A stretch of DNA of 64,000 nt from Chloroflexota bacterium (GCA_963663275.1 OY760183.1:64001-128000), one strand, 5' to 3'; shown: positions 3,947 to 51,108, numbered from the stretch's first letter. Notes: generated from the letters alone by a model not told the origin. Translations and numbers: made by a program.

Positions 3947-4085
3947 GAGACCTGTGCTTCACCCCTTCTCCATCGAGGTGAAGGTTGGGATGGGGGTGAA
4001 ATGGCTTGACCTCAAGCCACCTTTAGTTGTAGGTGCCGTCTGGATTCCGGCGTCCGCCGGAATGACAGAGTTATGCAAAGGCCTC
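3947..4085. mobile_element. MITE-like element, GAGACCTTTGC-type TIR, empty form
   Basis: Ends GAGACCTGTGC ... GCAAAGGCCTC; flanked by a direct CTTTG duplication (3942-3946 and 4086-4090). Confidence 0.75.
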
Positions 4086-4126
4086 CTTTGGCGGCGGCCT
4101 GCCTAACTGAGGCTATGAAGGCGCGG

Positions 4127-4882
4127 CTACGCCGGTATCCCCTTGCGCGCGCACGCCCCGGCCAGGTGCTCCGTCAGCCACGTCCCCTGGCGCGTGACGA
4201 AGTATTCCAGGAGCGCCCGGCCCGCGCTGGCGGTGGCTACGGCGGCGTCGCTCTCGGCGTACGCTCCCCAACTGCCGTCCGGCGCGATCTTCTCCCACGG
4301 CACGTAGTCCATGTAGTCCTGTTCGTCCGCCGGTACCGCTTGGCCGAACGGGCCGGGGAGCACGCAATCCGGCGCGAGGTAGAGCGCCAGGGCGCGGGAT
4401 TCGGCCCCGCCGTGCACCTCGCCGCGGCCGGCCAGGCCGGCGTGTTCCCGCGCCTCTTCCCAGACGCCCGCGCCGCCCTGGTGGGCGTTCACGACCACGA
4501 TGTCCGGAAACTGCCGGTTGACGTGCTTGATGAAGGCGGTCAGCCAGTACGACCCGCCGTGCCCGCACGTCAGCACCTGCTTGGAAAAGCCCTGCGCCCG
4601 CAGCCCGGCCACGATCTCTTCCAGCACGAGCATCACGGTAGCGGGCTGCAGCGTGACCGTGCCCGCGAAACCGGCGTGCTCCTCAGCCGTATTGAACGGC
4701 AGGGTCGGCAGCACGTAGGCGTTGAGCCGCTCGCCAAAGGCCCGCGCGAAATACTCCGCCACGAGCGTGTCGATGTGCAACGGCAGGCACGGGCCGCACT
4801 GCTCGGTGGAGCCGACGCTGATGATCGCGGTGTCAATACCGGCATCGGCAAGCTGTTTGGTGGTGTTGCGAAACGAAAGCAT
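4127..4882 (-). CDS. Creatininase family amidohydrolase
   Basis: GSTEQCGPCLPLHID, EEHAGFAGT, GHGG, HGGAES motifs. Confidence 0.85.
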   Translation of the reverse strand: MLSFRNTTKQLADAGIDTAIISVGSTEQCGPCLPLHIDTLVAEYFARAFGERLNAYVLPTLPFNTAEEHAGFAGTVTLQPATVMLVLEEIVAGLRAQGFSKQVLTCGHGGSYWLTAFIKHVNRQFPDIVVVNAHQGGAGVWEEAREHAGLAGRGEVHGGAESRALALYLAPDCVLPGPFGQAVPADEQDYMDYVPWEKIAPDGSWGAYAESDAAVATASAGRALLEYFVTRQGTWLTEHLAGACARKGIPA

Positions 4883-5153
4883 GGTTCTTCTCTTTCGAGA
4901 TCGAGGGTAGTCAGGTGAAGGAGGGTTCTGGCGGCCCGCCGGGTCTCTTCAGGAAATGGCGAGCGACACCCCGGTGTAGGGGCACGACATGTCGTGCCTC
5001 TACTGTTTGGTGGTGTTGCGAAACGAAAGCATGGTTCTTCTCTTTCGAGATTGAGGGTAATCAGGGGAAGGAGAGTTCTAGCATCCCGCCGGGCCTCTTT
5101 GGGAATTGGCGAGCGACACGCCGGTGTAGGGGCACGACATGTCGTGCCCCTAC
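4855..5153. repeat. ~150-bp tandem duplication containing the creatininase 5' end/RBS and a GTAG REP
   Basis: GTTTGGTGGTGTTGCGAAACGAAAGCATGGTTCTTCTCTTTCGAGA at ~4855 and ~5005, each unit ending in GTAGGGGCACGACATGTCGTGCC. Confidence 0.85.
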
Positions 5154-5235
5154 ACCTTATGTGAGGCGAGGCCAAGCATATTGAACACGCGAATAAGGCG
5201 AGTTTCCGGCGGGATAGGAAAACGCATCTCATCGA

Positions 5236-5387
5236 ACCGGAGGCTCACGCCAGCACCGGATGCTTACGCCAACAGGAGTGACTCATGCCAGCACAGGAGG
5301 CTCACGCCAATACGAGTGACTCACGCCAACACAGCAGGCTCACGACAGCACCGGAGGCTTACGCCAACACGGAAGGCTTACGCCAGC
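5236..5387. repeat. Degenerate 19-bp tandem repeat x8
   Basis: Units such as ACCGGAGGCTCACGCCAGC and ACCGGATGCTTACGCCAAC, contiguous, no spacers. Confidence 0.85.
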
Positions 5388-6586
5388 GCCGGATAGAGCA
5401 ATTCGTCGAACGCCACCGCCCGGTTGTTGTGGGCGATGCTCAGGCGCACGGCCTCGGCGACGGCGGTGCCGACCACGGCCTGTTGCGGCAGCGGCCGCGT
5501 CTTGGCAAACTCGGCGAGCAAACCGCGCCGCGTTTGCAGCGCCTCCGCCGCGTCCATGCCCTCGGTTTCGCGCAGGATGCGGCGCGAGTCGTGCACGCCC
5601 TGCATCACGCTATCGTAGCCGTAGCCCACGTACTCCGTGCCCGGGCCGTCCCAGGGTTCGTACTGCTTGAAGAAGTTGGGATTGAAGTGCTCGAAGCCCT
5701 TGTCCTGGGTCACAAAGTGCAGTTTGCGGTCCTTGTGGTCGGCCCAGTACTCGCCCTGCGTGCCGGAAAGCTGCATGCCCTGGTTGGTGAGGGCGCTGTT
5801 CGCCTCGGCGCAGACCCATGAGGTCTGCACCCAGAGCACCGAGCCGTCGCTCCACTCGATCACCCCCTGCACCGCGTCGAAGGCGTCCTGGCCCTGGGTA
5901 GGCAGGAATTTTTTCTGGCCGTAACCCCACACGCGCTTGGGCTTGAGGCCGGTGATGAAGTAGTAAGCGTCGGCGTAGTGCACGCCGATATACTCAAAAG
6001 GAGAGCTTTCCTCCGCCCAACGGGAAAAAATATCCAGGGGCATCTCGCGCCGTTCCTCGATCCAGGCGTGGCCGTGCAGCATCTCTCCCAGGTGTCCCTG
6101 CCGGTAGTAGCGTTGGGCGGCGCGAATGGCGCGGTCGTGGCGCTTGTGGTAGTCGGTGTAGACGTACACGCCTTTGTTTTCGGCGGCGGTGAGGATGGTG
6201 TAGACGTCGGCAACCTTGAGGCAGAGCGGCTTCTGCACCACCACGTGATGGCCGCGCTCGATAGCCGCCAGGATCATCTCGGTGTGCAGGTGATCGGGCG
6301 TCGCCACCATCACCACGCCGTGGGGGTCCAGGTCGTCCAGAGCCGCCTTATAGGAATCCGGCACGGACGCCTCGGGATCGCCGGCATCCGGGTCGGGATA
6401 GCCCTTGAATTGGTAATCGGAAAAGAGTTCGCGCACCGTGCGCAGCGTGCTCGCCCGCCGCGAGGCGATAGACACGTCGCCCACCACGCCGCGGTCCTGC
6501 TCCTGGAAGAGCGTCGGAATGATCACGTCCTGGCTGATCATGCCGCCGCCGATGAGGAGAATTGGTACTCTACCGTCCCACGCCAT
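5378..6586 (-). CDS. Gfo/Idh/MocA family oxidoreductase
   Basis: LIGGG, VATPDHLH, VQKP, YHKRHD motifs. Confidence 0.85.
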   Translation of the reverse strand: MAWDGRVPILLIGGGMISQDVIIPTLFQEQDRGVVGDVSIASRRASTLRTVRELFSDYQFKGYPDPDAGDPEASVPDSYKAALDDLDPHGVVMVATPDHLHTEMILAAIERGHHVVVQKPLCLKVADVYTILTAAENKGVYVYTDYHKRHDRAIRAAQRYYRQGHLGEMLHGHAWIEERREMPLDIFSRWAEESSPFEYIGVHYADAYYFITGLKPKRVWGYGQKKFLPTQGQDAFDAVQGVIEWSDGSVLWVQTSWVCAEANSALTNQGMQLSGTQGEYWADHKDRKLHFVTQDKGFEHFNPNFFKQYEPWDGPGTEYVGYGYDSVMQGVHDSRRILRETEGMDAAEALQTRRGLLAEFAKTRPLPQQAVVGTAVAEAVRLSIAHNNRAVAFDELLYPALA

Positions 6587-6734
6587 CAGGCCTTACCTCG
6601 AATCGTCTAATGCATAATGCTATTCGGCATACCAAACGTTGCGTAGAAAGCTCCATCCTCGTGCTGGCGCGATCGGCGCGCAATCACGGAGAAACGCGCC
6701 TCTGCATCCGCGGACGGGTAGACAGGGGGAGCGC

Positions 6735-6959
6735 TCAACCAAGCCAAAACCTCACGACGATGGTGCCAATCGCCACGAGTACCGAAACGCCAATACTGAT
6801 GTATGCGACCAGCAAAGCGTACTTCGCGTTCGCCACGTCTTCTTTCGTCGCGAATGATTCCATCCTGCCCTCGATGTAGGCGACGCGCGCGTGCACGTCG
6901 TCGAGGCGCTGCTGGTGATACCCTTCGGAACGCAACGAACCGTTGGAGGAGTCAGACAC
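6735..6959 (-). CDS. Small coiled-coil + C-terminal TM protein (DUF1640-like, ATKED motif)
   Basis: FATKEDV followed by a hydrophobic C-terminal helix; start overlaps the stop of the upstream ORF. Confidence 0.6.
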   Translation of the reverse strand: MSDSSNGSLRSEGYHQQRLDDVHARVAYIEGRMESFATKEDVANAKYALLVAYISIGVSVLVAIGTIVVRFWLG

Positions 6960-7236
6960 CTACTTCCCTAGCTTTCTTCAACCAGTCCCAAAGACTGTCA
7001 TAGTAGTGGCCGTAGTAGGATCCATTGAGCTTGAAGACCACACCCACGTTCGCGGAACCCGCCTCGTCCGACAGACCCAATGGCGCGCTCAGGTACTGAG
7101 GGTTGCTAATGGGCGACTGCACCAACAGAGCATGATCCGATAGCTCGAAGACGCCATCCAGAGAATCTGACGACTCTGCTTGCTCCTTGACCTCGGATGC
7201 AATTGCTTCCTCGAAAAACACCAGGTACAGATTCAT
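6952..7236 (-). CDS. Small hypothetical protein (possible Cas2/VapD-like ferredoxin fold)
   Basis: ATG at 7236 with GGAGG RBS; C-terminal G..YDSLWDWL pattern. Confidence 0.55.
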   Translation of the reverse strand: MNLYLVFFEEAIASEVKEQAESSDSLDGVFELSDHALLVQSPISNPQYLSAPLGLSDEAGSANVGVVFKLNGSYYGHYYDSLWDWLKKAREVGV

Positions 7237-7517: not shown

Positions 7518-8876
7518 ATGCAAGGCGAACGCAAACGAATGACACGCCGGTTCCTGTTGGCGGGTGCGGCGAGCGGCGCGGGCATGGCGGCATTGGCGGC
7601 CTGCGGCACGGCGGTCATGGCGCCGGAAAGCGGCGATGCCCCGCAGGAAGAAGAGGCCAAGGCCGAAGAAGCGCCCCAGGCCATGGAGCCGACCGTCGTC
7701 AACGCCCTCATGGTCTTGCAGGGCCAGAACGAGACCTGGATCAACTCCTGGAACACCATCTTCGCCAACTTCGAGGCCGCAAACCCCGAATACACCATGG
7801 AAATTACCGATTCCACGTTCGGCGAAGTCACCACCAAGGCCGGCGCGGCCCTGGCGGCCGGCATCTCCTTCGACGACATCTACGGCTACTTCGGTTGGCT
7901 GGGCCCGTTCGTGGACGGCGGCATCATCCAGCCGGTCACGCCGTTGCTGGCGAAAGACACTGAGGTCTCCCCGGACGACTTCTACGAATCCGGCATTCTC
8001 AAGTACAAGGGCGTGGCGTACGGCCTGGCCTGGCTGCTCACCGCGCATCCCATCTGGTCGAACAACGACAAGTTCGTCGAGGCCGGCCTGAAGACGCCCG
8101 CGGAGTTGGAAGCCGAGGGCAACTGGACGTGGGAAGCCGTGCTGGAAGCCGCAACCAGGCTCACCAAGCGCGAGGGTGATGAAATCGTGTTTGGCGGCCT
8201 GCGCATCTACCCCACGCACACGTCCTACCTGCCCTACTACGCCTGGGCCTGGGGCGCGGACCTCTGGAATGAAGGGTGCACGCAAGCCACCTTCAACACA
8301 CCGGAGTTTGCCGACGCGGTGCAGTTCTGCGTAGACCTCTTTGCCAAGCACAAGGTTATCGGCGGCAACTTCCTGGAAGGCACGCTGGGCATGTTCGAGC
8401 GCGCCACCGGCGGCGTGCGCCAGTTCGAGGAGCGCATCACGGCCAACGACCTCTTCGAAATCGGCATGGCGGGACGCCCCAAGGGGCCGAACGGCGATAG
8501 CGCGACGGTGATGACGCCCATCGGCATCTTCATCGGCGAAGGCGCGAAGAACCCGGAGGGCGGCTGGGCCTTCCTGAAGTACACGGTGAGCGCCGACGCG
8601 CTGCCGGAAGTGGCGGCCACCGGCCAGGGCCGCTTCACCGCCAACAAGCATCTGGAACCGCTGACGCTCTTCCCCTACGAGAATCCCGAGGTCTACAAGC
8701 AGATGGCGAGCGAGGGCCGTCCGGTGCCGCAACTGCTGAAGCAAGGCGACTTCAATACCGAGTGGCGCGCCACCTGGGACGCCATGGTGGAAGGCTCGCT
8801 GACGGTGGCCGAGGGCATGGCCAAAACCCAGGAACAGGTACAGGGCTGGATCAACGAAGGCGGCTGCCTGCGGTAG
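7518..8876 (+). CDS. Extracellular solute-binding lipoprotein (family 1, Tat signal)
   Basis: TRRFLL twin-arginine signal + LAAC lipobox; WTWE and GWAFLKY sugar-SBP-like motifs. Confidence 0.85.
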   Translation: MQGERKRMTRRFLLAGAASGAGMAALAACGTAVMAPESGDAPQEEEAKAEEAPQAMEPTVVNALMVLQGQNETWINSWNTIFANFEAANPEYTMEITDSTFGEVTTKAGAALAAGISFDDIYGYFGWLGPFVDGGIIQPVTPLLAKDTEVSPDDFYESGILKYKGVAYGLAWLLTAHPIWSNNDKFVEAGLKTPAELEAEGNWTWEAVLEAATRLTKREGDEIVFGGLRIYPTHTSYLPYYAWAWGADLWNEGCTQATFNTPEFADAVQFCVDLFAKHKVIGGNFLEGTLGMFERATGGVRQFEERITANDLFEIGMAGRPKGPNGDSATVMTPIGIFIGEGAKNPEGGWAFLKYTVSADALPEVAATGQGRFTANKHLEPLTLFPYENPEVYKQMASEGRPVPQLLKQGDFNTEWRATWDAMVEGSLTVAEGMAKTQEQVQGWINEGGCLR

Positions 8877-8919
8877 GAGCATAGAGCGCCGCGTCTCTCT
8901 CCCGCGTTTCGACCGCACG

Positions 8920-9183
8920 GTAAGGGCACGACACGCCGGGTCTGTCCCGCGCCGGATCTGCCGCCGGTGGGGGCACGACTCGCCGCGCCATTCCCGCTCC
9001 GGGCCTACCGTACGTAGGGGCACGGCACGCCTCGCCATTCCCGCTCCGGGCCTACCGTACGTAGGGGCACGACACGCCGCGCCATTCCCGCGCCGGGCTT
9101 ACCGGCGATACGGGCACGACACGCCGCGCCATTCCCGCGCCGGATCTACCGCCGCGTAGGGGCACGACATGTCGTGCCCCTAC
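8920..9183. repeat. Cluster of GTAG REP copies (GTAGGGGCACGAC..GTCGTGCCCCTAC) with repeated linkers
   Basis: About six partial or complete copies separated by near-identical GCCATTCCCGC linkers. Confidence 0.85.
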
Positions 9184-9374: not shown

Positions 9375-10754
9375 ATGGCATCACTGTCCAGACGACATTT
9401 CCTCGGCACGGCTGCCCTGACCGGCGCGGGCGCGCTGCTTGCGGCCTGCGGCGCGCAGGCGGGCACCGGGGCCATGGAGGAAGCGCCCGCGGCTGAGGGC
9501 GATGGCGACGCCGGCGAGGCGATGATGGAGAAGTCGCCCGTCGTCTTCTGGTATACGGGCTTCGACCCGTGGAACTTCGATAGGGAAGAGATTCCCATGC
9601 AGATCCGCCAGGAGTTCGACGAAACCACCAACTACACAATCGTGCCGCTCATTCGCGGCAACGGCGGTTTCCGTGACATTCCCACCGTGGTAGCGGCAGG
9701 CGTCGCGCCGGACAACTCCAAGACCCAGTCGTACATCCAGCCCCAGTGGGGTCTGCTGGAACTCGTCCGTCCAATGGACGCCTACATCTCTGCCTCGGCC
9801 AATGTGCCGTTGGACGACCTCTGGCCGGGCAAGTACGAGGCCATGCAGTGGGCCGGCAAGACCTACGGCATCAGCTATAGCATCGATGCCCGCGTCATCT
9901 ATTTGAACGTGGACCATTCGCTGGAAGCCGGCCTCGACCCGGAAACTCCGCCGGCCTCCCGGGATGAGATGGACGAGGCGCTGCTCAAGGTGCACAAGAC
10001 TGAGGGCGACAACATCACCCGTCTCGGCTGGGACCCGTTCCGCGGCTCCGGCGGCATCCACACGTGGATGGTCGGCTACTGGCAGCAGGGCGGCGAGATG
10101 CTCAGCCCGGACCGGACGAAGATCCAGGTCAACAACGATCTCGCCATCAACACCGTGACCTGGCTCAAGAAAGTCCTGGACGGCCAGGGCGGTTACGATA
10201 AGGTCCGCGAGTTCCACGGCACCTTCGAGAACCGCTTGCAGGAGTACGGCAGCGGCGGCAACACCTACATGTATCTGACCAATGCTACTCGTGCCTCCCT
10301 CGGTCCTTACGCCGAGGGCCTCGAATACGACTTTGGGCCGTATCCGGCGCTGGATCCCAGCACCGCCCTGCAAGCCACCTACTCCGGCGACTGGGCGTTC
10401 TGCCTGCCCAACGGCAGCAGCAACCCCGACGGCGGTTTCGCCTGGGCCGACTTCATGTACGGCGCCGACGTCAACCTGCGATGGTCGATTGCCATGGACC
10501 GTATCCCAGTGCGTCAGAGCGTTGCCCAAAGCGAGGCCTACATTGGCGACGACAAGCTGCGCAAACTCGCCATCGACGAGATGGTTGGCGCCCGCTTCGT
10601 CGTGAGTGTGCCCGGCGCCGGTGACATTCTGCCGATCACGAGCAGGAGCCTCCAGGCCATCATGCGCAACGAGGTTACGGTTGCTGAAGGCATGCGCACG
10701 TTCGAGGAGCAGGCGCAGACGGCGATGGACGACTTCATTGCCGAGTTTGGCTAG
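9375..10754 (+). CDS. Extracellular solute-binding lipoprotein (family 1, Tat signal)
   Basis: SRRHFL signal + LAAC lipobox; AGGAGG RBS fits ATG 9375. Confidence 0.85.
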   Translation: MASLSRRHFLGTAALTGAGALLAACGAQAGTGAMEEAPAAEGDGDAGEAMMEKSPVVFWYTGFDPWNFDREEIPMQIRQEFDETTNYTIVPLIRGNGGFRDIPTVVAAGVAPDNSKTQSYIQPQWGLLELVRPMDAYISASANVPLDDLWPGKYEAMQWAGKTYGISYSIDARVIYLNVDHSLEAGLDPETPPASRDEMDEALLKVHKTEGDNITRLGWDPFRGSGGIHTWMVGYWQQGGEMLSPDRTKIQVNNDLAINTVTWLKKVLDGQGGYDKVREFHGTFENRLQEYGSGGNTYMYLTNATRASLGPYAEGLEYDFGPYPALDPSTALQATYSGDWAFCLPNGSSNPDGGFAWADFMYGADVNLRWSIAMDRIPVRQSVAQSEAYIGDDKLRKLAIDEMVGARFVVSVPGAGDILPITSRSLQAIMRNEVTVAEGMRTFEEQAQTAMDDFIAEFG

Positions 10755-10992
10755 ACACCGGCACTATGACGTGAGGAGTGCGCCCGCTAACCAGGCGGCA
10801 TAGGTGCTCACGGCAAGCGCGGAAGTCTGAAAAACACGAGCGCGGCGGCGGTTGCAAGAACCGCCGCCGCGCTCGCTGTCTTTGGGGATTGTGCCCTGGC
10901 CGCTGCGCTCGTTGTCTTTGGGAATTGTGCCCTGACCCCCGCGCGGCGGCGCGCCTACGGCGGCGGCGACGTGGTGGGCTATGGTTCCGGTC

Positions 10993-11289
10993 AAGCCCTT
11001 TGCATAACCCCTTCCTCATCGAGGGCTGACAGGGGTAGGCACGTGTCATTCCGAGCGGAGCGAGGAATCTAGAACCGACGTTTTTGCAGCGAAAGCCTTA
11101 GATTCCTCTCTCCGCTGCGCTCCGCTCGGAATGACACGTGAAGTCGGATGTACAATGCCTACCCCTGTCAGCCCATTGAGGGAGAAGGTTAGGATGGGGG
11201 TGCAATGGATTGACATCATCCTATGTTTCGTTGCAAACACCCTCTGGATTCCGGCTTTCGCCGGAATGACGGAGCTTTGCAGAGGTCTC
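10993..11289. mobile_element. MITE-like element (same as 3947-4085) carrying a nested GGGCTGACAGG-type element at 11023-11174
   Basis: Outer ends AAGCCCTTTGCATAAC ... GCTTTGCAGAGGTCTC; inner ends GGGCTGACAGGGG ... CCCCTGTCAGCCC flanked by ATCGA/ATTGA. Confidence 0.75.
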
Positions 11290-11907
11290 CGGAGAGGAGT
11301 CCGGCGGTGCGGGAACCGCGCGGCGGTTGAAGCGCGTCATGGTCTTTTCCAGCCCCTCGGCAACGAGGCTCAGCGCCGCTGCCACCGCCTCTTCGATCGT
11401 CTTCTCGATTGCCGGTTGCTCTGACGGCAGGAAGTCGCTGAGCACGTGGGCAATCGGGTCCATGCCCGCCGGCGGGCGCCCCACGCCGATGCGCAGGCGC
11501 GGGAACGCGCGCGTGCCCAGCGCGTCGATGACCGATTCCACGCCCCGGTGCCCACCGTGGCTGCCGCCGGCCCGCAGCCGCAGCCGCGCGAACTCCAGGT
11601 CGATGTCGTCGTAGACCACCACGACCTGCGCCGGCGCGATCTTGTAGAAACGGGCCGCCTGGGCCGCGGCCGCGCCGCTGTCGTTCATGAAAGTGGTCGG
11701 CTTGAGCAGCAGCATCGTCCGCCGCCCCACCGCCGCCCGGCCGAACCAACCCTGAAAGCGCCGGTCGTTGATGGACACGCCGGTCTTGGCCGCGATGCGG
11801 TCGAGCACGTGAAACCCGACGTTGTGACGGTTGGCGGCGTACTTCTTCTCCGGGTTGCCCAACCCGACGATGAGCCAACGGGTGGGATCCTCCGGTGTTC
11901 GTGTCAT
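11221..11907 (-). CDS. pth: Peptidyl-tRNA hydrolase
   Basis: LIVGLGNP, NRHNVGF, KPTTFMN.SG, GGSHGGH, RLRIGVGRP. Confidence 0.95.
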   Translation of the reverse strand: MTRTPEDPTRWLIVGLGNPEKKYAANRHNVGFHVLDRIAAKTGVSINDRRFQGWFGRAAVGRRTMLLLKPTTFMNDSGAAAAQAARFYKIAPAQVVVVYDDIDLEFARLRLRAGGSHGGHRGVESVIDALGTRAFPRLRIGVGRPPAGMDPIAHVLSDFLPSEQPAIEKTIEEAVAAALSLVAEGLEKTMTRFNRRAVPAPPDSSPETSAKLRHSGESRNPEGVCNET

Positions 11908-11982
11908 GTGAGCGCCTGGACTATTGGTTTCAACTGCCTTACTCTTGCGGAGACCCCCTCACCCTAACCCTCTCCCTGGGAG

Positions 11983-13248
11983 TGTACAGTCCGGGGACAT
12001 GGGTAACAGTTATTCAGGGAGATAGGTTACACATTTTGTTCACTGAGGTCTACCGTTCTTATCGGATTGACAGCGAAGTATACGTTCCAGACGCCGTCGG
12101 TTTGCGTGGGTCGCAGGGCGACGCGGGTGTGGGCGAAAGCTCGCCCCACGCGGAGGGTCTTGCCCTGGAACGAGATGCGGCCGCTGACGTCGACGGCGCG
12201 CACCTGGTCGTCGGGAGCGTAGGTGATGGGGGGCAGCGTTTCGGGAAAGGGCTGTGGACTGGGCGTGTACCGGCTGACGGGCGTGTTGAGCGTGAGGGCG
12301 TGGTGCGGGCGTTCCCGGTTGTAGAAGTGCCGCCAAGCGTCGAAGGCGCGCTGGCAGTGCTCCAGGTTGGTGAAGGTGCGACCGGCCAGGACTTCGCTTT
12401 TCAGGGAGCGGTGGAAGCGTTCCAGCTTGCCGAGGGTCTGGGGATGGTAGGGACGGCTGTGAAGCACCTTGATGCCCAGGCGCATGAGCCAGACGGTGAG
12501 CGGCGTGAAGGGATGGGCGCTGTCGTTGCCCCAGGGGGCGCCGTTGTCCATGAGCATGGCCGCAGGCAGGCCGTAGCGCCGAAAGACGCGGGTGAGGCGC
12601 TCCTGGACGGTCTGACCCCGCTCGTCGGCGCAGGCCTCCACAGCCAGGTTGTAGCGGGAATGGTCGTCGAGCACGGTGAGCGGATGGCAGCGGTCGCGAG
12701 ACATGGCGAAATGCCCCTTGAAGTCCATCTGCCAGAGTTCGTTGGGCAGCGGGCGCTCAAAGCGAATGAAGGGCATGCGCTTGGCGCTCTCGGCCGGGTC
12801 GATCAACCCGTGGCGCTTGAGAATGGCGTTGATGGTGCTCCTGGCGGGCACGTCGGCGTAGCCGCGGTTCCGCAGCATCCGGCCCAGCGCGTCCGCGCCC
12901 TTCCCCGGATGTGCCAGGCGCAAGGCGATGATGTGCCGCTCCATCTCTGGACGCGTGCGCTGTGGGCTGGTGTGCGGACGCCGCGACCGGTCCCCCAGGT
13001 TCTCCATCCCGCCCTGCCTGTAGCGCGTGCGCCACTTGTAGCCGGTCTTGCGGCTGATGCCCATACGCTTGCACAGTGCGCTCATGCTCACCTCACCCGT
13101 CAGCATCACGGCTATAAACTCTTCCCGCTCAGACATAGGTGTACTCACTTTCCACGACATGGTCGTCCTCCTCTAGTGACGAATTCCCATGCCTTATGGT
13201 GTAACCTATGTCCCTGAAAATGTGTTACCTATGTCCCCGGGCTCTACA
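11983..13248 (-). mobile_element. IS481-family insertion sequence (1266 bp)
   Basis: TGT...ACA ends with ~49-bp imperfect TIRs containing repeated GGGACAT(A/G)GGT(A/T)ACA boxes; encloses the transposase. Confidence 0.9.
12027..13160 (-). CDS. IS481 family transposase
   Basis: ISRKTGYKW HTH, DRSRRP, DDE core WQMDFKG / MDNG / GKLERFHRSLK. Confidence 0.95.
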   Translation of the reverse strand: MSWKVSTPMSEREEFIAVMLTGEVSMSALCKRMGISRKTGYKWRTRYRQGGMENLGDRSRRPHTSPQRTRPEMERHIIALRLAHPGKGADALGRMLRNRGYADVPARSTINAILKRHGLIDPAESAKRMPFIRFERPLPNELWQMDFKGHFAMSRDRCHPLTVLDDHSRYNLAVEACADERGQTVQERLTRVFRRYGLPAAMLMDNGAPWGNDSAHPFTPLTVWLMRLGIKVLHSRPYHPQTLGKLERFHRSLKSEVLAGRTFTNLEHCQRAFDAWRHFYNRERPHHALTLNTPVSRYTPSPQPFPETLPPITYAPDDQVRAVDVSGRISFQGKTLRVGRAFAHTRVALRPTQTDGVWNVYFAVNPIRTVDLSEQNV

Positions 13249-13656
13249 TCCCAAAGGAGAGGGAACCGGAGGCCGCGTCGCGGGGGCTCGTCCCCCGCCT
13301 CTTCGGTTGACAGATAGCGCGGGGACTCATCCCCATTGATCTCGCACTAACCGTAGCGCGGGGGCTTGTCCTCCGCCTTCTTCTGACAGGGGTTTGCATC
13401 CTAGATCCGACTTCACGTGTCATTCCGAGCGGAGCGCAGCGGAGAGAGGAATCTAATGCATTGCCTTACAAATATCACCACTAGATTCCTCGCTCCGCTC
13501 GGAATGACACGTCCATACCCCTGCCTGTCCGCCCCCTGACTGAGACGCAGCGCGGGGACTTGTCCCCCGCCTCGCTGAGGCAACCGGTATTCGTAGCGCG
13601 GGGGCTTGTCCCCCGCCTCTTGTCAACCTTTGACGATACCATCGCGGGCACGGCGC

Positions 13657-16801: not shown

Positions 16802-16875
16802 TGGCTGGGGAACCAGGATTCGAACCTGGACTTATGGATCCAGAGTCCACTGTCCTACCATTAGACGATTCCCCA
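16802..16875 (-). tRNA. tRNA-Gln(CTG)
   Basis: Reverse strand TGGGGAATCGTCTAATGGTAGGACAGTGGACTCTGGATCCATAAGTCCAGGTTCGAATCCTGGTTCCCCAGCCA; anticodon CTG; encoded CCA. Confidence 0.95.
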
Positions 16876-17821: not shown

Positions 17822-18142
17822 GCGGCATCGTCTCGACACGTCATTCCTGTAAGTGCCAGACAATTCGTCTGCAGATTTGGTACAAGGGAACTCGGGGACT
17901 TAGCGGATAACTCGTCTACATGTCATTCCGAACGAAGCGCAGCGTAGTGAGGAATCCAGAGTGCTGAGCCTGTCAAACTCCGTGCAGCGTAGACTCTAGA
18001 TTCCTCGCTGCGCTCGGAATGACATGAGCGGCCAACACCGCCTCGTGGGAAGGCGATTCTGTCAACGAATTACTCAACACTGACGTTACCGAGCATAGAT
18101 AGCGCAGGGATGAGTTCCGGCACACTCAAGCAGGCTGAAGTC

Positions 18143-23725: not shown

Positions 23726-23848
23726 CTACCCAGCGGCATTACGGTAGCGCGGGGGCTTGTCCCCCGCTACCCAGCGACATTACTGTAGCGCGGGGGCTTG
23801 TCCCCCGCTACCCATCGGCATTACGGTAGCGCGGGGGCTTGTCCCCCG
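23726..23848. repeat. 41-bp tandem repeat x3 containing GTAGCGCGGGGGCTTGTCCCCCGC REP
   Basis: Three near-identical contiguous units. Confidence 0.9.
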
Positions 23849-24088
23849 CCTCTTGGCGCCAAAGGCAAACACCCCTTTGGAGGAAACATGCCTTGCGCTC
23901 GCAGCATCCGTTCATCCTTCGACACGCTCAGGACGAACGGATGCTGAATCCTCTCACAAACGACGAAACCTCTCACCGCTGCTAATCTCATCCGTTCGCG
24001 CTGAGCCAGCTTGTCCTGAGCTTGACGAAGGGCCGAAGCGTTCTCGCCGCCGTTCGCGCTGAGCCTGTCGAAGCGCTCTTCCTGAGCT

Positions 24089-32568: not shown

Positions 32569-32770
32569 GAGACCCTTGCGTAACCCCGGTCGGCGCGCAT
32601 TGAAACTCCCTCTCCCTGGGGAGAGGGCCGGGGTGAGGGGGAATCCTCGTCGGTTCGGCCCTCATTCCGCAAGATTCAGGCACGACGTGCCGCACAATCT
32701 CCCCTCACCCTAACCCTCTCCCCCAGGAGAGGGAACTGTTCGCCTCTCAGCGAGGTTTTGCAAAGGTCTC
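32569..32770. mobile_element. MITE-like element, GAGACCTTTGC-type TIR, carrying a family C hairpin pair
   Basis: Ends GAGACCCTTGC ... GCAAAGGTCTC; perfect 5-bp CTACG duplication at 32564-32568 and 32771-32775; inverted partial copies at ~46588-46797 and ~55950-56117. Confidence 0.85.
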
Positions 32771-35172: not shown

Positions 35173-35322
35173 GGGCTGACAGGGTTACGTACTCTACAAT
35201 CTAATTCAAGTGTCATTCCGAACGGAGCGCAGCGGAGAGAGGAATCTAGCGCTCGCTGCAAGAACGTCGGTTCCAGATTCCTCGCTCCGCTCGGAATGAC
35301 ATTTACATACCCTTGTCAGTCC
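35173..35322. mobile_element. Free-standing GGGCTGACAGG-type MITE carrying a family A pair
   Basis: Ends GGGCTGACAGGG ... CCTTGTCAGTCC; same type as the nested inserts at 11023 and 50828; decayed copy ~13384-13531. Confidence 0.65.
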
Positions 35323-40021: not shown

Positions 40022-40838
40022 TCGTCTACTCTACGATCTCCATTTGGCCGGTTGCGGCGGATTCGTAGGCCGCGAAGACGGTGTGCCCGGTCTTATCCGC
40101 GTTGCCGGCGCCCAAGAAGCGTTTGCCGCCAGTCTAGACCACCCACATCTCGTAGGGGTACCCCTCGTGGGTACCCTCTTCTTTTGGTTCCGGCTACGAC
40201 CAAGCCTGCCTACGGGCGCCCACAAGGGGCGCCCCTACCCGGTGGTCGCTGACCGTTCGCGAGTACCCGCGTAGGGGTACTCCTCGTGGGTACCCTCTTC
40301 TTTTGGTTCCGGCTACGGCCAAGCCCGTCTTCGGGCGCCCACAAGGGGCGCCCCTACCCGGTGGTCGCCGACCGTTCACGAGTACCCGCGTAGGGGTACC
40401 CCTCCTGGGCAATGCTATCGCATTGAAGGTGGAGAGTCACGAGTATGAGCCTCTACACGGCTTGGCACGCTGTGTAGGGGCACGACATGTCGTGCCCCTA
40501 CACCTTGTTGACGATAGGTCAAGCGCATTAACAGCGCGGATTCGCCGTGGTTGCCTGATTCAGCAGTTAGTGCGACAGCGCCGCCCCTCGTAGGCGCCCC
40601 TACGGCATGGCCGGCCAAGTCTCTGCTTCCATTGCTCATCATCGCCGACGCGGGCGATGCGCGGTCATGGAAAGACCGGCAATCGTGGACGTAGGTTGTG
40701 CGCACGCCGCAGCAAGGCGCACTATCTGCCGGACACCGTGGCAAGGCGGCTATCTGGCGGACACCGTGGCAAGGAGCGCACTTCCGCCCCACACCGCAAC
40801 GAGGCGCGCTTGCTGGCTAATTCCGTAAAGGCGGCTTC

Positions 40839-44231: not shown

Positions 44232-45051
44232 TTTCGGCCACCTCCCGCCAGTCAACGCGCCGCCGTTCGCGCAGCGATACTCCTACCGCCTGGGCGATGC
44301 GCGCGGCGGTAACGGCTTGTTCCGCGCACAAGAGCGGCTCGTCCCGTCCGGTGCGCACGCTCAGCCAGTGATCGAAGAGACCGGCGGCCAGCGTGTGGTC
44401 GGCGTTCTCGTCGCGCTGGTGCGCCATGCCCTTTGTGCCGTAGAGCAGCCATTCGTCGTGCGCGGGGCCGTCCGGCGTCTGCACCCAGGTTGCCGCGGCC
44501 TCGGCCGCGGGAAAGTGCGCGTTGGCGTTGATGGTGGTTGTCCCCTTATGCTCTCCGCGATTGGCGAAAATCCAGTCCGGCGTGTCGTCGATCAGGGAAG
44601 CCGCGGTCGCAAGAGCGTCGGCCAGGGGCGCAAAGCGCGGGGCCGCCCGCGCGGGTTGCGTGAGCCGGCGCACCGCCGCGTAGCGCGCGGGACCGGTGCT
44701 TTCCGCGCTCAGCGCCAGCCGCATGGCGCGCACGGCCGGCAGCGCGTGGCTGGGGCCGCCAAGCAACGGCCCGCGTCCGGCGCTCTGCAATTGTTGCGCT
44801 TCTGCTCGCGTCAGCGGCCCCGGTAGACACAGGGGAAAACCCGCGTCCAAGATCCGCCGCGCCAAGCTGAGGCGCTCCGGCAGGTTCCAGTGCAGTATCA
44901 CGCTGTCCAGCTCCCCATCCGCCAGGGCTTCCTCCAGGCCGTCCGCCGCGAGCGTGCGCGGCGCGCGCCGGTAACGGTCGCGCCACCGCGACGCAGGGCG
45001 GAGTTCCGCGGGAAAAGGCCCTACCAACGCGACCCAAGCTGTATCGTCCAC
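44224..45051 (-). CDS. Divergent Gfo/Idh/MocA-like protein
   Basis: LYGTKG and C-terminal AV..A..A..S...R helix; stop overlaps the next gene; GTG start after GGAGAG is inferred. Confidence 0.55.
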   Translation of the reverse strand: MDDTAWVALVGPFPAELRPASRWRDRYRRAPRTLAADGLEEALADGELDSVILHWNLPERLSLARRILDAGFPLCLPGPLTRAEAQQLQSAGRGPLLGGPSHALPAVRAMRLALSAESTGPARYAAVRRLTQPARAAPRFAPLADALATAASLIDDTPDWIFANRGEHKGTTTINANAHFPAAEAAATWVQTPDGPAHDEWLLYGTKGMAHQRDENADHTLAAGLFDHWLSVRTGRDEPLLCAEQAVTAARIAQAVGVSLRERRRVDWREVAENG

Positions 45052-46352: not shown

Positions 46353-46374
46353 CACCGTGCCAACTGGACTCTTA

Positions 46375-46547: not shown

Positions 46548-46887
46548 TTACGGATAGCCAACTTCTGAATCTGTCCCCAATCCCAGAGAAATCCTTTGCG
46601 AAACCTCGCCGCAAGGCGACCAATCCCCTCTCCTTGGGTAAGGCGACCAGTCCCCTCTCCCTGAGGGAGAGGGTTAGGGTGAGGGGAGATTGTGGGGCAA
46701 GCCGTGCCTAAACCTTGCGGAATGGGACCGAGCCGACGAGGATTCCCCCTCACCCCGGCCCTCTCCCCAGGGAGAGGGAGTTTCAATGCGCGCCGCGGAC
46801 CGCCGCCGTCGGCAGGGAGTGCGCACGCCGCGCCGCAATAGAAGAATCGCTACCGTCTCTTAAGTCAAAGCGCAATAAGGGATAGCC

Positions 46888-47826
46888 ATGTCAGATACAC
46901 CGGCATTGCCGCCCATGATCTACGACAACGTCGTCCAACTGATTGGCCGCACGCCGCTCGTGCGCCTCAACCGCCTCCCGGGGCCAGACGCGGCCACGGT
47001 GCTCGCCAAGATCGAGGCGCTGAACCCGGGCGGCAGCGTGAAAGACCGCATCGGCCTGGCCATGATCGAAGCGGCGGAGCGCGCGGGCAAGCTCAAGCCC
47101 GGCGATACGGTGGTGGAACCGACCAGCGGCAATACGGGCATCGGCCTGGCCGTCGTCTGCGCGGTGCGCGGCTACCGGCTCCTGCTCATGATGCCGGAAG
47201 ACATGAGCGTGGAGCGGCGCAAACTGCTCGCCCTGCTCGGCGCCGAACTGGTGCTGACCCCCGCCCTGGAGGGCATGTCCGGCGCGGTCTACGCGGCGCA
47301 GGAACTGGTGAACGAACACGGCTACTTCATGCCGCAGCAGTTCATGAATCCGGCCAATCCCGCCGCTCACCGCGCCACCACGGCGCGGGAAATCCTGCAC
47401 GATACGGGCGGCAAGCTGGACGCCGTGGTGGGCATGGTGGGCACCGGCGGCACAATCAGCGGCATCGGCCAGGTGATGCGCGGGGAAGCGCCCCACGTGC
47501 GCGTGATCGCGGTGGAACCGGCAAAGTCCGCCGTGCTTACCGGCGGGCGGCCGGGCATTACGCGCATCCAAGGCACCGGCGCCGGCTTCGTGCCCGGCAT
47601 CCTGGACCGCAGCGTGCTGGCCGAGGTGCGCACGGTGGAAGACGAAGAGGCGCTCACCATGGCGGAACGGCTGGCGCGGGAAGAGGGCATCCTGGCCGGC
47701 ATCTCCGGCGGCGGCGCGGTGGTTGCCGCCCTTGCGGTGGCGCAAGAACTCGGCCCGGACAAGACCGTGGTCACCATCATCCCGGACTCCGGCGAACGCT
47801 ACCTCTCCATGTGGGAAATCGAGTAA
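46888..47826 (+). CDS. cysK: Cysteine synthase A
   Basis: NPGGSVKDRI, EPTSGNTG, QQF.NPAN, GTGGT, PDSGERYLS. Confidence 0.95.
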   Translation: MSDTPALPPMIYDNVVQLIGRTPLVRLNRLPGPDAATVLAKIEALNPGGSVKDRIGLAMIEAAERAGKLKPGDTVVEPTSGNTGIGLAVVCAVRGYRLLLMMPEDMSVERRKLLALLGAELVLTPALEGMSGAVYAAQELVNEHGYFMPQQFMNPANPAAHRATTAREILHDTGGKLDAVVGMVGTGGTISGIGQVMRGEAPHVRVIAVEPAKSAVLTGGRPGITRIQGTGAGFVPGILDRSVLAEVRTVEDEEALTMAERLAREEGILAGISGGGAVVAALAVAQELGPDKTVVTIIPDSGERYLSMWEIE

Positions 47827-48014
47827 GCGCCCCACAACGCGCCGCGAACCCTATTTCCCCATCCGCGCGTCCACATTCTCTTCCATTGCCCGCGCAACAC
47901 GCCGGTAGGGGCACGACATGTCGTGCCCCTACCGGCGTGTTGCGGGGTGTACTGTCCCCCACCGGCGCGCCGTAGCGCGGGGGCTTGTCCCCCGCCTCTT
48001 CACCTGCCGCGCAC

Positions 48015-49049
48015 CTACGCCTGCGGGTGGATCAACATCTTGCCGAATTGCGCCCGCGCCGCCATGCGCCGGTGCGCCTCTTGCGCCTGCGCCAGCGAAT
48101 ATACCTCGTCCAGCACCGGCTCCAGGATGCCGCGCTCGGCCAGCGAGAGCACCTGCCGCAGGTCCAGGCGGTTGCCGCCCATGCTGCCCAGCAGGCTTTG
48201 CTGGCGCGTGTAGAGGAGCCCGATGTCCACCGCGCCGCCGCGTCCCGTGGTCGCGCCGCAGGTGACCAACCGGCCGTTGCGCGCCAGCGAGCGGACGCTC
48301 TGCTCCCAGGTGGCCTCGCCCACGTGCTCGAAGACCACGTCCACGCCGCGCCCGTTGGTGATGCGTTTTACCGCCGCCGCCGCGTCCGCCTCCGCGTAGT
48401 TGATCGTCTCTTCCGCGCCCAGCGCCCGCGCGCGCTCCAGTTTCTCATCGCTGCCGGCGGTGGCAATCACCCTTGCGCCCAGGAAACGCGCGATCTGCAC
48501 GGCGTAGACCCCCACGCCGCTGCCGGCCGCCTGCACCAGCACCCATTCGCCCGGCTCCACCCGCGTGCGCCGGTAGAGCATGTGCCAGGCGGTGATGGCG
48601 GCCAGGGTGAGAGCCGCCGCGGCGTCGTAGGAGAGGGCGTCCGGGATAGGCACGGCAATCGACGCCGGTACCGCGACGAACTCGGCGTAGCCGCCCTGGT
48701 TGGGGGCCGTGCCGATGATGTGGCCGTTGGCGCAGATGCTCTCCTCGCCCCGCAGGCAGAACTCGCACGCGCCGCAGAAGGCCCACGGCGAGACCGCGAC
48801 CCGCTGCCCCACGGCCACGTCCCGCGCCGCCGCGCCGGTCTGCACGACCTCGCCGGCAATCTCTGAGCCGGGGATGTGCGGCGGTTCGATGCCCGGCCGC
48901 GCGCCCGTGCGCAGCCAGATGTCAAGATGGTTGACGCCCGATGCGTGGATCTTGACCAATACCTCGTCCGCCTTGGGTTCCGGCGCCGGCACGGTATCGA
49001 GTTGCAGGGTCTCCGGACCTCCAAAGGCGTGAAAGCGAACTGCGCGCAT
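48015..49049 (-). CDS. Zinc-binding MDR family dehydrogenase / quinone oxidoreductase
   Basis: VNHLD.W, CG.C..C..G....C, AAGSGVG, FGK. Confidence 0.9.
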   Translation of the reverse strand: MRAVRFHAFGGPETLQLDTVPAPEPKADEVLVKIHASGVNHLDIWLRTGARPGIEPPHIPGSEIAGEVVQTGAAARDVAVGQRVAVSPWAFCGACEFCLRGEESICANGHIIGTAPNQGGYAEFVAVPASIAVPIPDALSYDAAAALTLAAITAWHMLYRRTRVEPGEWVLVQAAGSGVGVYAVQIARFLGARVIATAGSDEKLERARALGAEETINYAEADAAAAVKRITNGRGVDVVFEHVGEATWEQSVRSLARNGRLVTCGATTGRGGAVDIGLLYTRQQSLLGSMGGNRLDLRQVLSLAERGILEPVLDEVYSLAQAQEAHRRMAARAQFGKMLIHPQA

Positions 49050-49522
49050 GGAATCTTCTCCTGAGCGGCGGTCTTGCGTGTGTTTTTCGTGCGATGGACG
49101 CGGTGGGGCGCCCTTTTCCGCTTCGCGCCTATGGTACCGCGTGCGCGGGCGGGGCGCATCCCGCCGGATTTAGGGGAACCGATTCCAATCACCGTAGACG
49201 CCCAGCGTCAGGGAGCGCGTTACAATGGACGATGCGGGGGACAAGCCCCCGCGCTACGGGGATGAAGGTGCAGGGGATGATCCCCCGGCGTCACGGTTTG
49301 AAAGTGCGGGGGACGTGTCCCCTTGGTGTTACATTGAACTGACGCGCACTGTACTACCCGTTCGTGCTGAGCCCGTCGAAGTATGAACGGGTAGTACAGT
49401 GCGCCGCAGCCAACCCGCCGTTCACCTTTCGACAGGCTCAAGGCGAACGGCGGAGCGCGCCATCATCCCTATCTGAAGAGCAATCCATTCCTCAAGAGCA
49501 ACCCAATTCTCAAGAGCAAGCC

Positions 49523-50698
49523 ATGGCGGATGTCGTCAAAATCAGCATCGAGGCTACGGACGGCGCGGCGCGGGCCGGCGTATTGTCCACGCCGCGCGGC
49601 GCGGTGCGCACCCCCGCCTTCATGCCCGTCGCCACCCAAGCCAGCGTGAAGGCCCTTACCGCGGACGAGGCCGGCACGCTCGGCGCGGAGATGCTGCTGG
49701 CGAATACCTACCACCTGCTGCTGCGGCCGGGGCCGGACCTGATGCGGGACCTTGGCGGCCTGCATAATTTCATGCGCTGGCCGGGGCCGCTGCTCACCGA
49801 TAGCGGCGGCTTTCAGATTTACAGCCTGGCGCATCGGGTGGACGTCACCGACCAGGCGGTCACCTTCCGCTCGCACCTCGACGGCAGCGCCCACGAACTC
49901 AGCCCGGAGCGCGCCGTGGCGGTGCAGGAGGCGCTGGGCGCGGACATCATCATGGCGCTCGACCACCTGACGGCCCAGCCCGCCGCGCGCGCGGACGACG
50001 AAGCGGCGCTGGCGCGCACCCTGCACTGGGCCGCCCGCTGCCGCCAGGCCCACCGGCGCGGCGGCCAGGCGCTCTTCGGCATCGTGCAGGGCGGCTTGCA
50101 CCTGGACCTGCGCGAACGCGCCATCCGCGCGCTGGAGGAGATTGGCTTTCCCGGCTACGGCATCGGCGGCCTGAGCGTGGGCGAATCGAAAGCCGCCATG
50201 TACGTCATGCTGGCGCAACTGCATCTGCTCCTGCCGCCCGGCAAACCGCGCTACCTGATGGGCGTGGGCGCGCCGGAAGACCTGCTGGAAGCCATCGCCA
50301 ACGGCGTGGATCTCTTCGATTGCGTGCTGCCCACGCGCCTGGCCCGCCACGGCGCGCTCTTCACGCCCACGGGCCGCGTGAACATCCGCAAAACCGGCTA
50401 CCGCGCCCAGGTAGCGCCCGTAGACCCCACCTGCGACTGCCCCGCCTGCGCCCACTACAGCGCCGCCTACCTGCACCACCTCTGCCGCGCCGGCGAGTTG
50501 CTCTACCACCGCCTGGCCACGCTGCACAACCTGCGCTTCATCTTTCGCCTGCTCGCGGACGCCCGCGCCGCCATCCGCCAGCGCCGCTTCGCCGCCTTCA
50601 AAGCGGACTTCCTCGCCCGCTACACCCCCGCCGCCGAAGACGTGCGCATAGCCCAACGCCGCAAGTGGCAGGCGCGCCGGGAGAGTCGAAACACCTAG
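49523..50698 (+). CDS. tgt: tRNA-guanine transglycosylase
   Basis: TPAFMPVAT, ANTYHL, TDSGGFQ, GIVQGG, YLMGVG, FDCV.P. Confidence 0.95.
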   Translation: MADVVKISIEATDGAARAGVLSTPRGAVRTPAFMPVATQASVKALTADEAGTLGAEMLLANTYHLLLRPGPDLMRDLGGLHNFMRWPGPLLTDSGGFQIYSLAHRVDVTDQAVTFRSHLDGSAHELSPERAVAVQEALGADIIMALDHLTAQPAARADDEAALARTLHWAARCRQAHRRGGQALFGIVQGGLHLDLRERAIRALEEIGFPGYGIGGLSVGESKAAMYVMLAQLHLLLPPGKPRYLMGVGAPEDLLEAIANGVDLFDCVLPTRLARHGALFTPTGRVNIRKTGYRAQVAPVDPTCDCPACAHYSAAYLHHLCRAGELLYHRLATLHNLRFIFRLLADARAAIRQRRFAAFKADFLARYTPAAEDVRIAQRRKWQARRESRNT

Positions 50699-50796
50699 GC
50701 GCGAGATTCGTAAGCCCGGACGACACGCCTGTCCCGCGCTTGTCGAACGGTTGAAACCCGGAACGCCAATGAAGCGCCACGCAAGCCCAGCCGTAG

Positions 50797-51108
50797 GCGA
50801 CCATCGCAAAACGCCTTCCCCATCGATGGGCTGACAGGTGTAATGCCTCCAATGATCGACTTCACTTGTCATTCCGAACGGAGCGCAGCGGAGAGAGGAA
50901 TCTAAGGCGTTCGCTGCAAAAGCGTCGTTTCTAGATTCCGCGAACCCTGTTCGACGCTCCGCTCGGAATGACATTTACATACCCCTTTCAGCTCTCGATT
51001 GGGGAAGGTTGGAATGAGGGTGAAAGGGATTGACTTCATATGTGTATAACTATAAGAGCACCCTGGATTCCGGCTTTCGCCGGTATGACGGAGTTACGCA
51101 AAGGCCTG
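50797..51108. mobile_element. MITE-like element (same as 3947-4085) with nested GGGCTGACAGG-type insert at 50828-50994
   Basis: Outer flanks CGTAG/CGCAG; inner insert flanked by a perfect TCGAT duplication (50823-50827 and 50995-50999). Confidence 0.75.

Follow-up and report, generated by a model that had tools for sequence, protein, structure and literature searches.

Repeated insertion of one miniature inverted-repeat element into the hairpin of another in a Chloroflexota genome

Several bacterial insertion sequences (ISs) select short palindromes as targets. IS30 of E. coli inserts at the centre of nearly palindromic hot spots and duplicates 2 bp of the target (PMC9333248). ISs that target repetitive extragenic palindromes (REPs) are known from five families and include IS1397 and ISKpn1 (IS3 family), ISPa11, ISPpu9 and ISPpu10 (IS110 family) and ISRm22 (IS4 family) (Tobes & Pareja 2006, PMC1525189). 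[quoted passage not shown] Small REPs of Thermomicrobium roseum lie within C/G-rich palindromes whose consensus is CCGSSCC(n3,4)GGSSCGG (Di Nocera et al. 2013, PMC3733652). Here, we analysed a 64,000-nt stretch of a Chloroflexota bacterium (GCA_963663275.1), referred to as the window (G000:C1:64001-128000 of the single-contig, 3.53-Mb genome G000 with 64.3% G+C), and found that one MITE, the inner element I, has inserted many times and independently into the hairpin of a second MITE, the outer element O. Two further labels are used: A for a palindrome pair and P for a repeat with CCCTCTCCC..GGGAGAGGG ends.

Short repeat families, detected by repeat finding, are dense in this genome. The first-pass annotation, made from the sequence of the window alone, had placed four elements here, and direct reading agrees with it: an empty O copy with a perfect CTTTG duplication, two O copies that hold a second element in their hairpin (10993-11289 and 50797-51108), and this second element alone at 35173-35322. 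A further I copy (13380-13529) had been missed. The right parts of the three O copies are direct repeats (D11: 100/78/63%), and both filled copies are split at the CCCCTTCCCC/GGGGGAAGG hairpin by the element with CTGACAGG..CCTGTCAG ends. The two inserted I copies form an inverted pair (I2: 11061-11146 vs 50857-50942, 93% complementary) within co-oriented hosts and are therefore oppositely oriented. They also differ in age. The copy at 11026-11171 is only 1.4% away from four mutually identical I copies, with host O parts 17-21% apart, and the nearest relative inside an O of the copy at 50831-50991 is 11.9% away. The filled copies of the window are one young and one old insertion, and the earlier claim that the two events were independent holds on these grounds. 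Its argument from a 1-bp difference in register does not, since the loop of the host at 50797 has 6 nt (ATCGAT) instead of 5, and this, not a different cut position, accounts for the difference.

Copies were gathered genome-wide on both strands by blastn and nhmmer. The nhmmer matches number 196 for O and 446 for I; the latter reduce to 129 full-length non-overlapping copies, and the loci found with the I model total 232 (133 full I, 64 with A only, 33 partial and 2 other). Both elements are far commoner than chance allows. Analyses of I mostly refer to the 120 of 129 copies with well-defined ends, anchored on the CTGACAGG..CCTGTCAG core, and duplications were controlled by shuffling, so that flanks were re-paired (2000 shuffled pairings for O). 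The explanation that we favour, with a probability of roughly 85% for the whole, is that I is a MITE which repeatedly and independently enters palindromes, including the hairpin of O, and that O derives from an IS30-family IS. What the copies themselves establish is where the elements begin and end, that targets are duplicated, which IS is the parent of O, that I prefers certain sites, and that its insertions are multiple and independent.

O is a non-coding element of ~140 bp whose consensus terminal inverted repeat (TIR) is perfect over 16 nt. The copy at 3947-4085 has TIRs of the 16-nt class GAGACCTTTGCATAAC, the internal hairpin CCTTCTCC-ATCGA-GGTGAAGG and a further hairpin GGATTCCGGC..GCCGGAATGAC; its DNA folding z-score is modest (-3.3), the small hairpin being only part of the minimum free energy structure. 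Among 122 non-redundant units delimited by O-type TIRs, 63 measure 125-150 bp, 29 have the size of O plus I, six that of an IS and two that of an IS plus I, and 15 are copies of a ~200-bp relative, O2. The 5-nt flanks are identical in 49 of the 122 TIR pairs, compared with a mean of 2.9 (maximum 10) in the shuffled pairings, and the bases adjoining the TIRs are duplicated even where they are neither G nor C (CTGAC, CAACT, CTTGA). Hence, a target duplication of 5 nt stands. The loop of a CCTCTCC..GGAGAGG palindrome houses 26 of the 63 empty copies. O is shorter than ~300 bp, non-coding and multi-copy, has TIRs and a target duplication, and has its ends in common with an autonomous IS, as is characteristic of MITEs.

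This IS was found by nhmmer: positions 1-103 and 80-140 of the O profile match the two ends of nine intervals of ~1,170-1,180 bp. One of them (G000:C1:40128-41304, L099) encodes a 336-aa open reading frame (ORF) that scores 237.5 bits with the model NF033563 'IS30 family transposase' (cut-off 80) and, in Pfam, 56.3 bits with HTH_38 and 31.6 bits with rve, slightly below the cut-off of 32.6. Because the ends of O flank an IS30-family ORF in nine elements, O is an internal-deletion derivative of a resident ~1.18-kb IS30-family IS with nine genomic copies, of which it retains the first ~103 and the last ~60 nt, including the 16-nt TIRs. The check proposed in the first-pass annotation, a search for full-length ISs with the same ends, was thus successful for O; for I, none was found in G000 or beside the PF01609 transposases of five relatives. 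CCTCTCC and GGAGAGG arms flank four of the six IS-size copies, and in three of the nine parent copies I occupies the hairpin at the left end, in two orientations. Transposase relatives with 68-89% identity occur in many metagenome-assembled genomes (586 confirmed stretches). The best 80 of these stretches were taken for a TIR search, which found the TIRs of O at four loci, each in a different palindrome and with 6-nt repeats; at the other 76, O-type TIRs were not found in a windowed search that was narrow.

The core of I measures ~146 nt and carries TIRs of 16-19 nt starting (G)CTGACAGGGGTAGGCA. The consensus inverted repeat spans 19 nt, of which the outer 2-3 nt are target. In the 120 copies the direct repeat that flanks I keeps to one register (core+11), with a per-position identity of 75-101/120; the two flanks match over all 11 nt in 29 copies, over the inner 9 in 31, over the inner 7 in 35 and over the inner 5 in 42. 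After shuffling, only 1.6 copies (maximum 7) have identical 9-nt flanks, compared with the 31 observed, and 4.4 (maximum 14) have at most one mismatch, compared with 55. In 68 copies with certain register, where a base at position 2 or 3 beyond the core deviates from G (left) or C (right), the other repeat copy mirrors it in 15/19, 18/20, 9/11 and 17/21 cases; at position 1 it does so in 0/5 and 3/5. Since positions 2-3 are mirrored, at least 9 nt derive from the target. The target duplication of I is at least 9 nt, possibly 11, with an outermost C..G pair that is assignable to neither target nor element. The duplication of 5 bp assigned to I before was too short and its GGG/CCC ends were wrong by 2-3 nt per side, because with at least 9 nt duplicated, GG/CC belong to the target.

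Perfect 9-nt repeats also flank I at non-hairpin sites (CGGGTGAGA, GCTAAGAGG, CGTAGCGCG, CCTTCATGA), so that the repeats are true duplications and not mere parts of a palindrome. I is likewise short, non-coding and multi-copy, with TIRs and a target duplication. That both elements are non-autonomous, as had been proposed, agrees with TIRs and target duplications well above the shuffled controls. MITEs derived from Tn3 (TIMEs) have a 5-bp target duplication. Such an identity was considered for I on account of the GGG ends and the 5-bp duplication given in the first-pass annotation, and does not fit the duplication of at least 9 nt.

The reconstructed pre-insertion sites of the 120 copies give a symmetric logo centred on the duplication, in which a CT-rich arm with a C run at its end is followed by five variable bases, a G run and a GA-rich arm. 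The sites lie in the O hairpin (45 copies), the long-arm hairpin of P (33), a one-sided (half) CCTCTCC (21), the flank of the REP GCGGGGGCTTGTCCCCCGC (8), a full CCTCTCC/GGAGAGG palindrome (1) and other contexts (12). By a looser test, O halves flank 51 of 129 I copies, and nearly all of these 51 share one position in the hairpin; both halves are recognised in 39. Genome-wide, 51 O-type and 342 P-type hairpins are unoccupied, which by arithmetic from these counts gives an occupancy of 45/96 (~47%) for O and roughly 9-14% for P. Of 120 insertions placed at random in 3.53 Mb, ~0.04 would, by similar arithmetic, fall no more than 11 nt from one of 96 sites. The 33 youngest I copies (<4% from the consensus) lie in O (15), P (12), half sites (4), the REP (1) and another context (1). 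A crude palindrome score does not separate used from unused sites (5.4/12 complementary positions at I sites, 5.5 at 1,226 CCCN5GGG sites). The target of I is a class of C-run/N5/G-run palindromes present in several repeat families, with the O hairpin as favourite. The suggestion that the inner element targets a hairpin of the outer one is therefore right as to a strong preference that includes this hairpin, and too narrow as to the target. Enrichment of target duplications and a site preference of the inner element had been set beforehand as tests; both are present genome-wide.

O inserts with a 5-nt duplication, often into the loops of CCCTCTCCC..GGGAGAGGG palindromes. As a mechanism for I, which is built around the REPIN-like (REP doublet forming a hairpin) inverted doublet A, we propose that it may be moved in trans by a DDE-type transposase with cuts staggered by 9 nt (possibly 11). 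Its target is a short site of two-fold symmetry, with a C-run, 5 variable nt, a G-run and CT-rich/GA-rich arms, and the palindrome may be recognised by a symmetric transposase complex, either as a double-stranded site or as an extruded hairpin. The hairpin near the left end of O, CCCCTTCCCC-ATYGA-GGGGGAAGG, is the best such site in the genome. Because of this, I has entered the O hairpin many separate times and in either orientation, and copies of the parent IS too.

A wider proposal, which we consider unlikely, is that CT-rich/GA-rich palindromes, perhaps as extruded hairpins, serve as landing pads for at least three unrelated systems, namely the IS30-type O, an IS481-family IS and the orphan I. 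In that case I, recently active (as its identical copies indicate) without a cognate transposase in the genome, might be cross-mobilised by an enzyme with unrelated ends or might belong to an undescribed IS family. As insertions supply further palindromes, Russian-doll arrays might then build themselves, with transposition confined to non-coding safe sites.

Two other explanations concern the target. Insertion of I might be nearly random, with survival only in harmless repeats, so that the enrichment would reflect selection and not targeting. Nearly all repeats here are intergenic, and insertion into them is expected to be neutral; however, I lies at one position of the 140-bp O and not along its length, a symmetric consensus with the duplication at its centre emerges from the flanks of 120 copies, and the target classes are no different in the 33 young copies less than 4% away from the consensus of I, which makes such selection very unlikely. 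Alternatively, I might be moved by a structure-specific, non-DDE system that reads single-stranded hairpins, either a Y1/HUH enzyme (REP-associated tyrosine transposase, RAYT, or IS200-like) or one of IS110 type, and the duplications would be parts of the target palindrome. The targets do form hairpins, I holds the REPIN-like doublet, and the genome has GTAG-tagged REPs and one Y1_Tnp match; moreover, IS110-family elements are known REP-targeters (PMC1525189). This explanation has little chance of being correct in view of the long perfect TIRs of I and of perfect, non-palindromic 9-nt duplications at non-hairpin sites such as CGGGTGAGA, GCTAAGAGG and CGTAGCGCG. To our knowledge, HUH and IS110 elements do not produce long duplications of this kind.

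The insertions of I into O hairpins are multiple and independent. From 39 filled copies, 10 that lacked a TIR or core match were set aside; the remaining 29, in which all four ends are recognisable, have a mean pairwise distance of 21% for the O parts and 15% for the I parts. In 12 young copies inside O, I has a mean pairwise divergence of 2.4% and the host O parts one of 17.6%; O diverges more than I in 66/66 pairs, the two orientations occur 6:6, and the loop duplications have several sequences (ATCGA, ATTGA, CTCGA, ATTGG). Four I copies are identical across 146 nt in hosts that differ by 12.6-18%. The nearest O neighbour of a filled copy is also filled in 12/29 cases (0.38 expected), that is, without clustering.

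These data bear directly on the idea of a single nesting, by which all filled copies would descend from one O::I composite amplified by the O transposase. Composites keep both O TIRs and could still be mobilisable, their 5-nt flanks being perfect repeats in 11 and one-mismatch repeats in 7 of the 29 units of O+I size, and there is a weak correlation of O and I distances (r = 0.34) as well as an ATCGA/ATTGA loop pair in several copies. Nevertheless, I occurs in both orientations relative to O (27 same, 24 opposite), identical or near-identical I copies sit in O hosts differing by 12.6-26%, at least four different perfect loop duplications occur among the 12 young copies, and filled O copies are not clustered. 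A single composite with identical junctions, named in the first-pass annotation as the opposing outcome, is extremely improbable as the only origin of the filled copies. That filled O is ancestral and empty O arose by precise excision of I has next to no probability, for although the duplicated 9-11 nt are present just once in an empty hairpin (which is not specific), I copies are younger than their hosts, 6/9 parent IS copies are without I, and 342 hairpins of the same kind in other repeat families are unoccupied.

Several points weigh against the explanation that I entered palindromes repeatedly and independently and that O is IS30-derived. The duplication of 5 nt in O and its parent IS lies outside the 2-3-bp range of the IS30 family, and a lone 1,239-bp IS5-family element (G000:C1:1441994-1443232, L101; NF033581, 297.6 bits) shares the 16-nt TIRs of O; because of this element, either enzyme may be the one that moves O. 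For I, 50/120 copies (42%) have at least three mismatches in the 9-nt repeat, some of them fitting a register shifted by one. Among the 29 filled copies, the correlation between O-part and I-part distances mentioned above (Mantel r = 0.34) was reached by 21/5000 permutations, and several share one mixed loop pair, with ATCGA to the left and ATTGA to the right. On account of these two observations limited spread of composites is possible, and some filled copies could have arisen in this way. Finally, no autonomous partner of I was found in G000 or beside the PF01609 transposases of five relatives, so that mobilisation of I in trans is putative.

The search for this partner covered 130 forward and 129 reverse matches to the I TIR in G000, which yield no IS-sized unit with a transposase. 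With up to 3 mismatches, 97 TIR pairs lie 140-239 nt apart and eight 420-4,607 nt apart, and 25 TIRs are unpaired within 6 kb. Five of the eight long intervals were inspected; three end in MITE (A) sequence, being separate MITEs, and two have weak TIR-like ends, their ORFs not having been scanned with Pfam. A looser search (4 mismatches) gave mostly false matches in G000. In the five relatives (G008-G011, G016), the only other genomes searched, 0/30 PF01609 loci are bounded by I TIRs. Models of IS256, ISL3, IS1595 and IS701-type (DDE_5) transposases have no match in G000. The transposases found there are of the IS30 family (9 copies), the IS481 family, the IS4 family (4 PF01609 matches), one of the IS5 family and one Y1_Tnp.

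IS4-family elements make duplications of 9-13 nt at symmetric targets. With its long duplication and symmetric target, I may resemble them in behaviour. Symmetry of the target is also noted for Tn5 (PMC1525189). The resident IS4-family IS (NF033592, 155.9 bits) has a 13-nt repeat in a REP hairpin and ends unlike those of I. At G000:C1:1063147-1064370 (L100) and in three further copies, this IS has entered the REP GCGGGGGCTTGTCCCCCGC, and its 13-nt direct repeat GGGGCTTGTCCCC covers the whole loop and part of the stem.

The same nesting was found in another species of the genus (G011), where an O copy lies between the arms of a CCCTCC..GGGAGAGG palindrome and is flanked by a perfect repeat of CTGAG; the I within it has CCCTCGACGGG as its perfect repeat. 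The proposed comparison of orthologous loci yielded a single one. Around the copy at 10993, both flanking genes are kept in G011 alone, with an unalignable intergenic region that has neither O nor I; for the copy at 50797, the surrounding synteny is kept in 0/16 genomes of the genus, and a precise empty allele was not obtained. Contigs of four public runs were also compared with window positions 10400-11900, setting aside joints with sides <30 nt inside repeats. An 865-nt contig (X9) spans 10400-11046 without differences, from the flank through the left part of O into I. None of these contigs bridges the composite or joins across I, and they have no bearing on polymorphism either way. The runs are labelled sponge or marine metagenome, their contigs have ~91-98% identity in the flanking genes, and the short-read assemblies break at O/I repeats.

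A is present in all 133 full I matches, in line with the first-pass annotation, in which the inner element wraps the palindrome pair; its further reading of A as a third layer of insertion finds no evidence, because no empty I shell exists (the closest pair of I TIRs is at least 140 nt apart). We read A as a built-in module of I, which was either built around an older A doublet or captured it. Full doublets (~90-125 nt) occur among the 64 A-only loci, as do half units (~30-60 nt), and A alone has the architecture of a REP doublet. The core of A occurs in 16/16 genomes of the genus, full-length I only in G008-G011, G014 and G016. The A unit ends in CTAG, not GTAG, and the single Y1_Tnp match of the genome lies at G000:C1:383050-383358. 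GTAG-tagged palindromic repeat families (D1, D8, D9) are abundant and partly tandem (window 13275-13633, 23744-23866, 4974-5158, 40138-40303 and others).

Table 1. Coordinates of the elements and their repeats in the window, counted from its first letter
Feature	Position	Strand	Remarks
Unoccupied outer MITE O	3947..4085	+	Full-length O-family match; one of 63 TIR-delimited copies of 125-150 bp
O target duplication CTTTG, left copy	3942..3946		Read directly; perfect
O target duplication CTTTG, right copy	4086..4090		Read directly; perfect
O occupied by I, 297-bp composite	10993..11289	+	Genome 74993-75289
Inner MITE I, 146-nt core CTGACAGG..CCTGTCAG, young subfamily	11026..11171	-	Orientation opposite to host O
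I 11-nt repeat register, left copy (CTCATCGAGGG)	11015..11025		9/11 identical to right copy
I 11-nt repeat register, right copy (CCCATTGAGGG)	11172..11182		Partner of 11015..11025
O occupied by I, 312-bp composite, left TIR degenerate	50797..51108	+	Genome 114797-115108
Inner MITE I, 161-nt core, old copy	50831..50991	+	Same orientation as host O
I 11-nt register, left copy (CCATCGATGGG)	50820..50830		8/11 identical to 50992-51002
I 11-nt register, right copy (CTCTCGATTGG)	50992..51002		Partner of 50820..50830
I outside any O, adjoining GTAG-tagged REP	35176..35319	+	9-nt flanks CCGCAAAGG and CCGCGTAGG, 7/9 identical
Additional I copy	13380..13529	+	Genome 77380-77529; repeat finding (D16, I4, I11)
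Palindrome pair A alone, inverted doublet of ~29-nt unit TGTCATTCCGAGCGGAGCGAGGAATCTAG	2744..2844	+	One of 64 A-only loci; D14, D12, I14
Palindrome pair A alone	17915..18026	+	Repeat finding D18, I15, I19

Regarding the I copies outside O, the one at 35176-35319 folds as a long hairpin (z = -6.0), and the one at 13380-13529 lies directly 3' of a REP (GCGGGGGCTTGTCC..) between the 9-nt flanks CCGCCTTCT and CCGCCCCCT. Two tandem short forms of I were seen outside the window (G000:C1:44527-44567 and 44701-44741), in which the left TIR and spacer run directly into ..CACGTGTCAGCCC, which looks like a deletion, between TGTCA repeats, of A together with most of the right arm. O2 (GAGACCTTTGC-type TIRs, CGTAG repeat) lies on the minus strand at window 32569-32770 and encloses a P element, both of whose ends are CCCTCTCCC-N-GGGAGAGGG hairpins; P is found alone too, and further O2/P places are 46650-46795, 55950-56126 and 61600-61677. 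One kind of end is common to two unrelated transposase families, the IS5-family singleton and the nine IS30-family copies. The singleton was considered as a nested IS; this was ruled out, as no inner TIR pair was found.

An IS481-family IS of ~1.3 kb occupies window 11956-13276, with an ORF on the minus strand (12027-13160; NF033577, 290.2 bits), imperfect TIRs of ~65 nt and some nine similar copies across the genome. It is enclosed by CCCTCTCCC and GGAGAGGG arms, a kind of palindrome into which O and I insert as well. Arrays of tandem repeats at window 8873-9151 and 5236-5393 (D2, D5) have periods of 47 nt and 19 nt and are apparently unrelated to the MITEs. Rfam, run at the gathering threshold on the whole window, found a tRNA at 16805-16875 only, and no match on the elements described here.

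Overall, our data provide a quantified bacterial example of how the choice of target sites leads to ordered nesting of transposable elements, in which one MITE fills about half of the hairpins of another and also enters the parent IS of that MITE. They bear on how transposases read a short symmetric C-run/G-run site, on whether an IS30-family enzyme makes 5-nt and not 2-nt staggered cuts, and on the enzyme behind I, an apparently orphan, recently active MITE. For annotation, these families explain much of the intergenic repeats in this genus of Chloroflexota and the breaks in its short-read assemblies.

Among MITEs, nesting has a parallel in plants, for which Jiang and Wessler reportedly used nested MITEs in 2001 to infer insertion preference. 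MITEs lie within MITEs there as well, but the setting is eukaryotic, the targets are TA/TAA and the target is not centred on a hairpin. In searches of the open-access literature, we found no description of one bacterial MITE targeting the hairpin of a second, and the word 'nested' is absent from a 2024 review of prokaryotic MITEs.

The closest bacterial systems are those introduced at the outset. As in the IS1111/QMITE2 system of Coxiella, a palindrome borne by a MITE is the repeated landing site, and the MITE copies become hot spots. IS1111, however, is an autonomous IS of the IS110 family, whereas I is a MITE with TIRs and a 9-11-nt duplication, inserts in both orientations and is also found in the parent IS of its host. 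With the REP-targeting ISs, I has in common that insertion is specific to short repeated palindromes; in those cases the REPs are free-standing and the invaders autonomous, but here the palindromes lie within other elements and the invaders are mostly non-autonomous. Like IS30, the parent of O encodes an IS30-family transposase and sits in the centres of palindromes, both here and in four relatives, although the 2-bp duplication of IS30 contrasts with 5 nt in O and its parent and 6 nt in the four relatives. In T. roseum, which also belongs to the Chloroflexi, short mobile repeats are likewise found in small GC-rich palindromes in hundreds of copies. The units inserted there are GTAG-tagged REPs, presumably mobilised by RAYTs and without TIRs or long duplications, unlike I. 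Taken together, the nesting of I in O is real, well supported and palindrome-directed, a clean case but one with close precedents in the hot spots of IS30, the REP-targeting ISs and IS1111/QMITE2.

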